From a virus (lineage: Duplodnaviria > Caudoviricetes), in IMG/VR virus record IMGVR_UViG_3300030330_004274, positions 1 to 64,000 of that record: a stretch of 64,000 nucleotides of DNA, one strand, 5' to 3'. Positions 22,115 to 40,729 of the stretch are shown piece by piece. A program made the position numbers and the translations under genes. The notes below the pieces were generated by a model that saw only the letters and a list, made by a program, of their open reading frames with translations, was not told where the DNA came from and did no database searches. Numbering within the stretch: the stretch's first letter is position 1; every line of letters begins with the position of its first letter.

Positions 22115-22169
22115 TGTTACAAACTGTTACAATTTAAGTATTGTAATCTTGTCAAATTCTTCTTATATT
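22115..22169 (+). promoter_or_regulatory. direct-repeat promoter, copy 1 (TGTTACA-N3-TGTTACA ... TATATT)
   Basis: Repeats at 22115/22125; TTGTAA-N17-TATATT. Confidence 0.75.
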
Positions 22170-27447: not shown

Positions 27448-27719
27448 TGATGGTATTCAATTCATTAACAAATTTTTTGAGCAATAAATACAATCTATGG
27501 GGATTAATCATTTTATCCAATTTACTGATAGGATACATTATAGGACAGTACCTGACTGTTGGCCAATTATGGTTAGTATTCATACTTGTATTTGTGAACA
27601 ACTTCTGTATGTTGACCTATGGAATGGCACAAGGTATGTTGATGTTAAGTATGACACAAAAAGCAATGAAGGAATGGTTGGATAAAATGGAAAGACAGAA
27701 CAAAAATGATACAAAGTAG
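27444..27719 (+). CDS. membrane protein
   Basis: Two hydrophobic segments; ATGA overlap. Confidence 0.5.
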   Translation: MMMVFNSLTNFLSNKYNLWGLIILSNLLIGYIIGQYLTVGQLWLVFILVFVNNFCMLTYGMAQGMLMLSMTQKAMKEWLDKMERQNKNDTK

Positions 27720-27880
27720 TGTTGATACACTATCTATGGTTGTTAGTGTCTATTTGTGGGGAAGAATGGTGTAAAACACCATATTACAATGTATTTTAAG
27801 TATTAAATTCATAGTATAATATAGAGAGAATTATATACAGCACATACATATCTCGCAAATAATTTTTTTTGAGAAAAAAC

Positions 27881-27910
27881 TTGACTTGAATGGGCAAAAA
27901 GCCTTATATT
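27881..27910 (+). promoter_or_regulatory. sigma70-type promoter TTGACT-N18-TATATT
   Basis: Matches the repeated promoter class; lies upstream of the non-coding region. Confidence 0.7.
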
Positions 27911-27952
27911 CATAGTATGTTATTTGAAATAATCGGAGTTTAGCGGGGCAAT

Positions 27953-28008
27953 TGTTACAAATTGTTACATTTATTTTCTTGGATTGTATTGGCTTTTCTT
28001 CGTATATT
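27953..28008 (+). promoter_or_regulatory. direct-repeat promoter, copy 4
   Basis: Repeats at 27953/27963; TATATT at 28003. Confidence 0.7.
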
Positions 28009-28012
28009 GTAG

Positions 28013-28509
28013 TATCATCATAAGGATGGTAAAAGTTTTTTGATATAATTCCTCGCGGGAATGGGGTTCAGTATGAAAATGACTGAATAATGACTTTCCA
28101 AAAAGGTTATAAGGTGCGTGAGTAAGGTCTGTGGTGGACGGTACAAGGTACATAACTGTATGAGTATCACGAGGGTAACTCCTCTCGAAAGCGGCTGAAG
28201 TAAATAAAGAAAAATACATTGTATTTTTTGGTTACATGCATAAGGGTATACAATAATCCCTTTCACACCAGAAGAACCCCAAAATATTATTTGAGCGTGC
28301 TCCAGAAGAGTAAAAAGGAGTATCAGGAGCGTGCTCCAGAAAAAATGAGATGAACCTGCATACTTGGGTTGTAGTAATACTTCCTCAGTCCCTCCAGGTT
28401 CTCTCCTCACAATTAAATAGGTTATATTCTATATTGGTGTTATCCTTTCTACAATATAGAACAAAGGGCAACTCAATGGTTTAACTCCTTTTCCACAGTT
28501 GCCCTTTTT
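28013..28509 (+). ncRNA. candidate ~500-nt structured non-coding RNA
   Basis: Two upstream promoters, no + strand ORF in the track, raised GC, many hairpins and long-range stems, ends in a stem plus U-tract. Confidence 0.6.
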
Positions 28510-28563
28510 GTTACAAACTGTTACAATTTTCCTGTTGTAATATTGATAGAAAGTCCGTAAGTT
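28509..28563 (+). promoter_or_regulatory. direct-repeat promoter, copy 5
   Basis: Repeats at 28509/28519; TTGTAA-N17-TAAGTT. Confidence 0.7.
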
Positions 28564-28589
28564 ATAGTATAATTAAAAGGAGTTAATTT

Positions 28590-29756
28590 ATGAATCAACC
28601 GTTAAATGTAGTAAAAATTGAAAAATCAGGCAATAGGTTCAACGCCTGGGATACTAATGGTGTCAAGAGGACATCTGAAATAACAACTGTTACTCGTAGG
28701 AAAGCGTTCGAGGGAGATTATCTCTTGGGTGAGTTCGTTATGAAGAATGGTAAACACTACTGGAAAAAAGTGGATAATATTGAATCCGCTCCAGTTAATG
28801 ATACAATCTCTTCGGTAGAAGTCCCTTCTGACCACGAAGAGGTATTGAATTTTATACACAGTTCTTATTCCCTTAAACCAAGAATGCTGATGATGTCCGA
28901 GTTAAAATGGAAGTATTTGGTTAGGTCTGGTGTTAGAGGAAAGAACATTATGATGACAGGTCCTGCTGGTTGTGGTAAAACTATGGCAGCAAAATCGCTA
29001 GTAAATTCTTTAGATAGGCCTGATTATTATTTTAACTTGGGTGCAACTCAAGACCCAAGGTCAACTCTTATCGGTAATACCCACTTTGACAGTGCTAAAG
29101 GTACTTATTTCTCACAATCTTTATTTGTTGAGGCAATACAAACACCTAATGCGGTTATCCTCTTAGATGAGTTATCCAGAGCACATCCAGATGCATGGAA
29201 TATCTTGATGACTGTGTTGGATTATGGTCAAAGATACTTGAGGTTGGATGAATCTAATGGTAGTGATACTATTAAGGTTGCGGATGGTGTAACATTTGTA
29301 GCCACTGCGAACATCGGTAATGAGTATACTTCTACAAGAGTTATGGATAAAGCCCTGATGGACAGGTTCACTATTGTAGAGATGGATGTATTATCAGAGG
29401 ATGAGGAAAGTTCTCTATTGAATATGATGTTCCCTAATGTAGATAGTGTGGTGTTAGGTAATGTGGCTAAGATAGCAACTCTCACAAGAACAGAATCTAA
29501 CTCCGATACTGCGAGAATAACAAGTGGTATCAGTACAAGAACTACTGTTGAGCTGTGTGGGTTACTATATGATGGGTTCTCGTTAGAAGAGGCTGCTGAG
29601 GTTAGTATCTATCCACAGTATGATGCGACTGGTGGTGTTGACTCTGAAAGAACCTTTGTGAAACAGATTGTACAAAAGTTTGTTGATGATGGCTCAAGCG
29701 ATGACCTCTTCAATGAGGAAGAGATGGCGGAGGCCGAAGAGGATACTAACTACTAA
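28590..29756 (+). CDS. MoxR/CobS/CbbQ-type AAA+ ATPase
   Basis: Walker A GPAGCGKT, Walker B ILLDE, ATAN, DKALMDRF, ISTR. Confidence 0.85.
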   Translation: MNQPLNVVKIEKSGNRFNAWDTNGVKRTSEITTVTRRKAFEGDYLLGEFVMKNGKHYWKKVDNIESAPVNDTISSVEVPSDHEEVLNFIHSSYSLKPRMLMMSELKWKYLVRSGVRGKNIMMTGPAGCGKTMAAKSLVNSLDRPDYYFNLGATQDPRSTLIGNTHFDSAKGTYFSQSLFVEAIQTPNAVILLDELSRAHPDAWNILMTVLDYGQRYLRLDESNGSDTIKVADGVTFVATANIGNEYTSTRVMDKALMDRFTIVEMDVLSEDEESSLLNMMFPNVDSVVLGNVAKIATLTRTESNSDTARITSGISTRTTVELCGLLYDGFSLEEAAEVSIYPQYDATGGVDSERTFVKQIVQKFVDDGSSDDLFNEEEMAEAEEDTNY

Positions 29757-29784
29757 TAGTTAGTAAGTGTGTGGTTAACTCCTG

Positions 29785-29819
29785 AACAAGTGGCTGGATA
29801 ACGGCCGGCCACTTGTTTT
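29785..29819 (+). terminator. probable intrinsic terminator
   Basis: AACAAGTGGCTGG/CCGGCCACTTGTT stem followed by Ts. Confidence 0.55.
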
Positions 29820-40032: not shown

Positions 40033-40055
40033 AATATATGGATAAAGGAGTTAAT

Positions 40056-40694: not shown

Positions 40695-40729
40695 AGTATA
40701 TGATTGAAAAAGGAAAAAAAAGGAGTTAT

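Follow-up and report, generated by a model that had tools for sequence, protein, structure and literature searches.

What does the stretch of phage DNA just ahead of an AAA+ ATPase gene encode, and what might its product do to that gene? The stretch holds no credible open reading frame (27730-28590), is framed by two copies of a GTTACA-repeat phage promoter motif, and was described in an earlier note as yielding an RNA that ends in two hairpins whose pyrimidine loops could occlude Shine-Dalgarno (SD) sequences, either those of the phage's own regulon or those of host mRNAs. To our knowledge, hardly any work has addressed post-transcriptional control by lytic-phage RNAs. In T4 the two small RNAs encoded in the tRNA region are without a known role (PMC3014915). 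The element considered here is simple and recognisable, a stable hairpin displaying the complement of one gene's ribosome-binding site, and recurs in dozens of phages across a large uncultured marine T4-like lineage; it may supply a testable rule by which these phages would set the dose of a MoxR/CobS-type ATPase, it links the orphan manA RNA to a defined neighbour and transcript context, and, if the pairing is true, its loop/site pairs would be ready-made orthogonal translational switches.

The locus and its promoters

The window, meaning the whole 64-kb stretch analysed, is the first part of a 168.8-kb IMG/VR virus record that is about 95% complete. The phage has a G+C content of 31% and is T4-like as judged from the match of its Gp23 capsid protein, by which its nearest cultured relatives are Flavobacterium phage immuto (65%) and Microcystis phage Mel-JY01 (55%); no psbA gene was found in it. 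The ATPase gene (28590-29756, on the plus strand like all window features given below) is of the AAA_5, MoxR/CobS-like type, with a match to Pfam AAA_5 at 4.9e-17 and a weak one to bpMoxR, and has 193 relatives in IMG/VR. A blastn comparison of 27700-28600 with GenBank phages returned no match, and Rfam at its gathering threshold reports two tRNAs and nothing else in the whole window.

The promoter motif consists of two GTTACA repeats and a TATATT box. Motif counting and an alignment of all seven copies place it at 22116, 22699, 26174, 27954, 28510, 39979 and 40641, always on the plus strand, against 0.32 copies expected. The copy at 28510-28573 would serve the ATPase gene, whose ribosome-binding site follows at 28575-28586. 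An AAGGAG site follows each of the six copies that precede coding sequence (6/6); across the whole genome such sites are concentrated between 11 and 54 kb, at about 19 gene starts, and are rare before late and structural genes. More distant relatives have TTGACT-N18-TATATT in place of the GTTACA-type promoter.

A composite non-coding RNA

The remaining copy of the motif, at 27954-28015, has its -10-like TATATT at 28003-28008 and predicts a transcript start near 28015. The best explanation of what lies downstream is an early non-coding RNA of about 495 nt, built from a manA-like domain, a new module that we call P1 after its closing helix, and the two hairpins, 1 and 2. The 5' domain (28060-28269) matches the manA RNA family (Rfam RF01745) with 34.7 bits (E 3e-7) over model positions 1-192, under the gathering score of 55.2, as is also the case for the manA-like RNA of relative L094, at 49.6 bits; it is probably a divergent, sub-threshold member of that family. 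Contigs from RNA libraries of two studies, at 99% identity or above, span 28048 or 28061 to 28279-28281, and one begins at 28061, abutting an adapter; these ends are a weak hint of a discrete, stable manA species. None of the RNA-library contigs gives near-identical cover of 28316-28509, which does not imply that this part is absent.

Between manA and the P1 module lies an insert, 28293-28340, predicted to fold into a hairpin that shows an SD-like sequence, AAAAAGGAGU (28312-28321), in its loop. It is a near-palindromic direct repeat, and the SD-like sequence of its loop complements the loop of hairpin 2 over 9 nt.

The P1 module (28347-28426) emerged from comparison of relatives. Helix P1 (28347-28358/28395-28405) occurs in at least nine different, fully complementary variants, enclosing junctions CAUACUU (28359-28365) and CAGUCCCUC (28386-28394) that are invariant, as is the tail running to 28426. 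IMG/VR has the module in 12 contigs and metagenomes have it in at least 16; loose pattern scans of genome contigs gave no true instance among the 120 matches listed, and those of metagenomes gave mostly chance matches, with 16 true. It has no Rfam match and constitutes a new, undescribed structured RNA. Its carriers besides the window are L084-L095, L105, L128, L134, L149, L151, L174, L186, L193 and L200-L213, and in L093 and L105 it has a promoter of its own. In L084 and L087, which are the same sequence, the region of about 100 nt around the module is arranged differently: the module stands directly after a vWA gene, lacks the pyrimidine-loop hairpins and leads straight to the ribosome-binding site of an ORF that by its N-terminus resembles, to the eye, a 5'(3')-deoxyribonucleotidase. 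This is possibly a cis-regulatory use of the module. A 44-aa ORF at 28350-28484 was considered as coding and rejected because its frame across the conserved loop differs in L089 and is stopped in L091.

Two terminal hairpins with pyrimidine loops

Both hairpins are found where the earlier note had placed them. Hairpin 1 (28427-28461) has a 10-bp stem (28427-28436/28452-28461) and a 15-nt loop (28437-28451) containing UCCUUUCU, a loop type that recurs in relatives. Hairpin 2 with its U run (28463-28509) has an outer stem of 11 bp (28463-28473/28497-28507), an inner one of 3 bp and a 13-nt loop (28480-28492). Folded jointly they reach -26.7 kcal/mol vs -13.5 +/- 2.6 for 200 shuffled sequences, none of which folds as well (z = -5.1). 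Hairpin 2 has the properties of an intrinsic terminator, with six G-C pairs in its 11-bp stem and five U's at 28505-28509; a consensus terminator scan missed it because a 13-nt loop is atypical. The next promoter begins at 28510, directly abutting it.

Further sequences to which the earlier note had drawn attention are also present. TAACTCCT recurs at 28176, where it lies half in the stem and half in the loop of a hairpin within the manA-like RNA, and at 29776, just 5' of the ATPase terminator. AAAAGGAGT, suggested as a mask for loop 2, does sit at 28313 in the loop of the predicted insert hairpin; the insert is found only in the window and in its closest relative, L089, where it folds differently, and masking is therefore not a conserved property.

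Resemblance to known small RNAs is likeness of shape only: Rfam scores for LhrC (RF00616, 20.4 of 110 bits), DapZ (RF02551, 19 of 56) and STnc250 (RF01409, 18 of 42) are all sub-threshold, with E values of 0.7-3.

The loops are conserved while the stems turn over

Comparison with homologues, for which the earlier note had called, found the loop cores invariant and the stems variable, with covariation in the stems. ACUCCUUU is present in the loop of the last hairpin in 23 of the 24 full-length homologous RNAs, on stems that are unrelated, and U-C-C-U-U-U is invariant in alignment A2; a U-rich tail follows about 20 of the 24 terminal hairpins and is missing from four. RNAalifold, run on a MAFFT alignment of hairpin 2, returned no structure, the stems being out of register, and pair statistics were therefore taken on loop-anchored hairpins: 68 distinct hairpins show 53 different inner stem arms, with five to six pair types per stem position. 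Beyond the core, which the search itself prescribes, the loops are rich in U and favour A two positions ahead of the core and U-C or U-U behind it. Loops of the hairpin 1 type (UUCCUUUCU) occur in about ten homologues (L089, L090, L091, L094, L128, L134, L200, L207, L009, L029), again on different stems. We conclude from these sequences that hairpins 1 and 2 belong to a conserved family of phage hairpins, definable as a GC-rich stem of 8-12 bp bearing a U/C-rich loop of 12-20 nt with core YUCCUUU, and that the loops are under selection.

The hairpin cassette is, by its sequence contexts, independent of the RNA that precedes it, the 5' partner being manA, the P1 module, a tRNA (L029/L030) or another domain without P1 (L009). 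The domain found instead of manA in L086, L090, L092, L009, L128, L149, L151, L186, L200-L204, L209 and L210 has a covarying closing helix (GCGGRRU with AYYCCGC), and an inner hairpin with the invariant loop GGCAGUU, and a search of Rfam for it gave nothing at E<0.01. A palindrome of type GTTGTATAATACAAC, possibly an operator, lies once or twice between the RNA and the ATPase promoter in L009, L091, L094, L128 and L200. Among the nearest cultured phages, Mel-JY01 has the ATPase and no such hairpin, and immuto has no ATPase match.

That the loops serve as ribosome-binding sites of small ORFs, an outcome that would have spoken against any role in RNA pairing, found no footing: they are used by no conserved small ORF on either strand. 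As sites for minus-strand genes in particular they were rejected, there being no minus-strand gene to the left and the hairpins being strand-specific.

Loop 2 complements the ribosome-binding site of the ATPase gene

The central observation of the earlier note concerned complementarity, and it holds: the 12-mer 28481-28492 matches, in reverse complement and without mismatch, the ATPase gene's ribosome-binding site (28575-28586). The promoter at 28510 lies between the two, and their duplex is worth -15.8 kcal/mol. The 12-mer is in the loop of the minimum-free-energy fold, as befits an anti-SD element, an exposed pyrimidine motif complementing a target SD. Two further matches that had been noted, near 40044 and 40718, each contain one mismatch (40043-40054 and 40718-40729). 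With up to one mismatch allowed the 12-mer has six matches vs 1.46 expected, a number reached by none of 100 shuffles. Ranking the 306 candidate gene starts in the 168.8-kb genome by complementarity to loop 2 puts the ATPase site first. Between hairpin 1 and the ATPase leader the match extends over no more than 6 bp (-6.0 kcal/mol).

The same relation is seen across relatives. The mean match between loop and ATPase site is 7.93 nt for cognate pairs vs 6.88 nt for non-cognate ones, the cognate mean being attained in 0 of 20000 permutations (p<5e-5), where, as in the permutation tests below, related loci are counted as independent. Matches of 12-15 nt are made by different sequences in the window, L004, L031, L034, L038 and L059. 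When pairing is anchored on CC/GG, the contiguous match 3' of the GG, toward the start codon, is 2.68 vs 1.51 (p<5e-5), and in 38 of 47 cases the base that follows GGA could pair with the one that precedes UCC. Within loci, which have about 9.6 genes each, the ATPase site is the best or tied-best match in 34 of 46 and strictly the best in 21, where about five would be expected. The gene for a vWA (CobT-like) protein that lies just upstream of the ATPase gene in the sister clade provides a control: its site matches the loop no better in cognate than in non-cognate pairs (5.65 vs 5.64, p 0.53), and a mere genome-wide SD flavour is therefore ruled out. The 130 nt downstream of the hairpin give a marginal excess (6.5 vs 6.3 non-cognate, p 0.04).

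Loop and site are found in compensatory states, GGAG with CUCC, GGAA with UUCC and GGG with CCC. Reconstruction of GGAG vs CUCC on the ATPase tree yields six independent contrasts, in which the loop changes about twice the same way as the site, about 0.1 times the opposite way and about 3.9 times not at all; with six contrasts a sign test is unable to reach significance. For GGG/CCC the loop follows in two of three independent contrasts. Counter-examples exist: in L040, L062, L012 and L079 a site of the GGAG or GGG type goes with a loop that reads UUCC or CCUCC. Most loops, moreover, keep a C in ...UUUCU opposite the A-run of the ribosome-binding site, where it is unpaired unless one A is bulged; this C fits likeness to the 16S rRNA tail as well as it fits pairing. 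Pairing of loop and site is thus supported by these sequences and not proven, the independent switches being few.

The full 12-bp helix is impossible within a 13-nt hairpin loop without strain. Cofolding of the 3' domain with the ATPase leader gave a ddG of -1.2 vs -1.0 for shuffles, a result that is uninformative because the nested-structure folding used cannot model pairing of a loop with a strand.

The hairpins are rare and adjoin the ATPase gene

In 80 ATPase-centred loci we counted 63 hairpins on the coding strand and 11 weak ones on the other, against 0-7 per strand in shuffled sequences. They are rare, at two or three per genome. A scan of the 168.8-kb genome finds hairpins 1 and 2, both directly before the ATPase promoter, and a looser scan adds one AU-rich candidate near 138684; this pyrimidine-loop hairpin (G000, 138660-138720) lies upstream of a 3052-aa ORF, about 100 nt from its AAGGAG site, and may be due to chance. 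Two relatives of 130 kb have three hairpins each, of which one directly follows the ATPase stop codon. A degenerate loop pattern applied to the genomes of five relatives performed no better than its reversed control.

Placement differs between clades. In the window clade the hairpin precedes the ATPase promoter; in the sister clade, whose ATPase is 67-75% identical, it lies mostly 40-70 nt past the ATPase stop codon; and in L005, L006, L151 and L174, cases that include relatives from the window clade, hairpins flank the gene on either side. The site where relatives place the downstream hairpin is occupied in the window (29769-29818) by an element comprising GGUUAACUCCU and then, as predicted by folding, a 14-bp terminator hairpin. 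Wherever the neighbourhood of the ATPase gene was sampled the hairpins adjoin it. Elsewhere, at about 101962 in G001 and about 105370 in G003, a coding-strand hairpin with loop CCUCCUUU lies between an ORF whose acidic tail recalls gene 32 protein and the ribosome-binding site of another gene, so that members of the hairpin family do not strictly require the ATPase gene as their neighbour.

A putative anti-ribosome-site of one gene, and its rivals

We consider that the loops act as a gene-specific anti-ribosome-site of the neighbouring AAA+ (MoxR/CobS-like) ATPase and set the amount of that protein, a reading drawn from sequence comparison to which we assign a probability of about 0.5. Loop 2 (28481-28492) would pair with the SD region of the ATPase mRNA (28575-28586), and since the leader of this mRNA is only about 20 nt long the pairing would block binding of the 30S subunit, so that less ATPase would be made. 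Hairpin 2 would double as the intrinsic terminator of the non-coding RNA. The hairpins could act in trans, as the 3' end of that RNA or as a processed 3' fragment, or in cis, on transcripts that read through the terminator; the 3' UTR hairpin of sister-clade ATPase genes would do the same through 5'-3' pairing or as a 3'UTR-derived fragment. Structure, conservation, rarity, linkage and excess complementarity are what was observed, and from them we infer pairing in the cell, repression, and a trans or cis mode.

Two of the alternatives keep the pairing and change its reach. Action might be confined to cis, in the style of T4 gene e, the loop masking the site on read-through transcripts while those begun at the 28510-28573 promoter escape. 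The window clade keeps loop, promoter and site in this order, at 72-116 nt, the four of 24 terminal hairpins without a U tail would allow read-through, and T4 e, soc, 49 and I-TevI set a precedent (PMC3014915); yet in most relatives the hairpin is downstream of the ATPase gene, to which the scheme cannot then apply, hairpin 2 of the window is a strong terminator, and the 130 nt that follow the hairpin match its loop, as noted, barely better than in non-cognate pairs. We regard confinement to cis as unlikely. The opposite extension, close to what the earlier note had in mind, is a general anti-SD small RNA whose loops pair with many SD-led phage early or host mRNAs and time a global shut-off. 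The loop core does complement any AAAGGAG or AAAGGAA site, and the clustering of AAGGAG sites and their presence after all six coding GTTACA promoters speak for such an RNA, as do the 11/12 matches at 40043 and 40718. Within loci, however, the ATPase site is preferred, the vWA site does not covary, the hairpins adjoin the ATPase gene in the loci sampled, and the extended matches run into gene-specific flanks; in relatives the loop tracks one site, that of the adjacent gene, the same type of hairpin is also carried in the ATPase 3' UTR of most relatives, and the 40043 and 40718 matches are best explained by repetition of a promoter-leader cassette rather than as targets of a regulon. Control of a regulon or of the host at large is accordingly not supported as the account of these loops, and we hold the general anti-SD RNA to be improbable. 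None of the results asks for phage transcripts to escape by way of leaderless AUGs, as the earlier note had supposed.

Other alternatives dispense with pairing to the ATPase mRNA. The loop, as UCCUUUCU or CCUCCUUU, might be read by a phage repressor, by S1 or by another factor that reads the 16S tail, its anti-SD likeness being a by-product or a decoy. Its last 8-9 bases are what we take to be the usual 3' end of bacterial 16S rRNA, which we count in favour of such mimicry; some relatives carry CCUCCUUU, the C of UUUCU is conserved even though most ribosome-binding sites offer it no G, and sister-clade hairpins are followed after 9-19 nt by a purine box and the site of the next gene, much as an operator would be. 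The T4 gp43 operator is likewise a hairpin loop beside an SD (PMC3014915). Against this, the loop follows changes of the ATPase site, including GGG/CCC and the 12-15-nt matches outside the 16S-like core, and no candidate protein was found, so that we judge a protein-binding or 16S-mimicking loop to be quite unlikely. A search of the genome for RegB (Pfam PF10715) gave no match, as did the control genomes, and therefore nothing follows from it. Least demanding of the loop is a plain terminator or 3' stabiliser in a PeSL-type cassette, with no regulatory role, the complementarity reflecting A/U-rich low complexity and common descent. The hairpin-then-early-promoter layout of such cassettes (PMC4122927), the U tails on most hairpins and the non-significance of the independent contrasts all suit it; but loops of 12-20 nt are poor for termination and are nonetheless conserved while stems turn over, there are two or three such hairpins per genome against many more transcription units, and the within-locus and vWA comparisons oppose mere composition. 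A loop devoid of regulatory function seems to us very improbable indeed.

Likeness to known systems

C/U-rich loops target SD regions in RNAIII and RsaE/RoxS of Staphylococcus aureus. They do so also in the small RNA LhrC (PMC4132741), and pairing through the terminator loop is known for E. coli small RNAs (bioRxiv 10.1101/2024.01.16.575843). The phage element resembles LhrC-type RNAs in having redundant pyrimidine loops, one of them in a terminator hairpin, that would pair with ribosome-binding sites; it differs in belonging to a lytic T4-like phage, in serving apparently one neighbouring gene, in its varied 5' domains and in having no relationship of sequence or model to LhrC. Another parallel is the icaR mRNA of S. 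aureus, in which an anti-SD motif of the 3'UTR pairs with the mRNA's own SD region and blocks initiation (PMC3868564). In both cases a pyrimidine anti-SD outside the coding region would be directed at the SD of one specific gene, and the ATPase 3' UTR hairpin of the sister clade has the same geometry; the phage motif, unlike that of icaR, lies in a hairpin loop and is in the window placed upstream on a separate non-coding RNA.

Among T4-like phages two arrangements invite comparison. In T4 genes e, soc, 49 and I-TevI a complement upstream masks the ribosome-binding site, and with a promoter between the two arms only promoter-proximal transcripts are translated (PMC3014915). The window shares the T4-like background, the upstream complement of the site and the promoter between them; here, however, the loop is about 90 nt away behind a terminator, the presumed target is an early gene, and in relatives the element is mostly downstream. 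PeSL cassettes, a stem-loop followed by an early promoter, are repeated in the variable early region of T4-like phages, and have been described as recombination or regulatory cassettes without a conserved functional loop (PMC4122927). Hairpin 2, directly before the early promoter at 28510, has this layout; in contrast to PeSLs, conservation resides in its loop and the genome has few such elements, the copy at 28510 being the only one of the GTTACA promoters preceded by a pyrimidine-loop hairpin.

The manA motif (RF01745) is known from marine T4-like phages (PMC2864571). The 5' domain of the non-coding RNA matches that family, if below threshold, while hairpins 1 and 2 are outside its model. 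manA RNAs are reported to self-assemble in vitro into cages of 8, 10 and 60 subunits (bioRxiv 10.64898/2026.07.01.735769), and the fusion in the window could therefore present many anti-ribosome-site loops per particle. It is conceivable, if a long shot, that the hairpin pair is a portable, RNA-only governor of translation that can be mounted on the 3' end of any abundant RNA beside the ATPase gene, be it a tRNA trailer, the ATPase's own 3' UTR or manA RNA, and that when fused to manA it acts as a multivalent trap, either of the ATPase mRNA or of SD-led mRNAs at large.

Sequences following the downstream hairpin

Where the hairpin follows the ATPase gene, a purine box complementary to the loop is seen 9-19 nt past it, before the real SD of the next gene (L024, L028, L038, L042, L047, L055, L059, L067, L068 and others). 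That next gene often encodes a small conserved protein with a VL-RHKD motif. In L068 the purine box is a 13-nt perfect complement of the loop, which suggests a possible pseudoknot.
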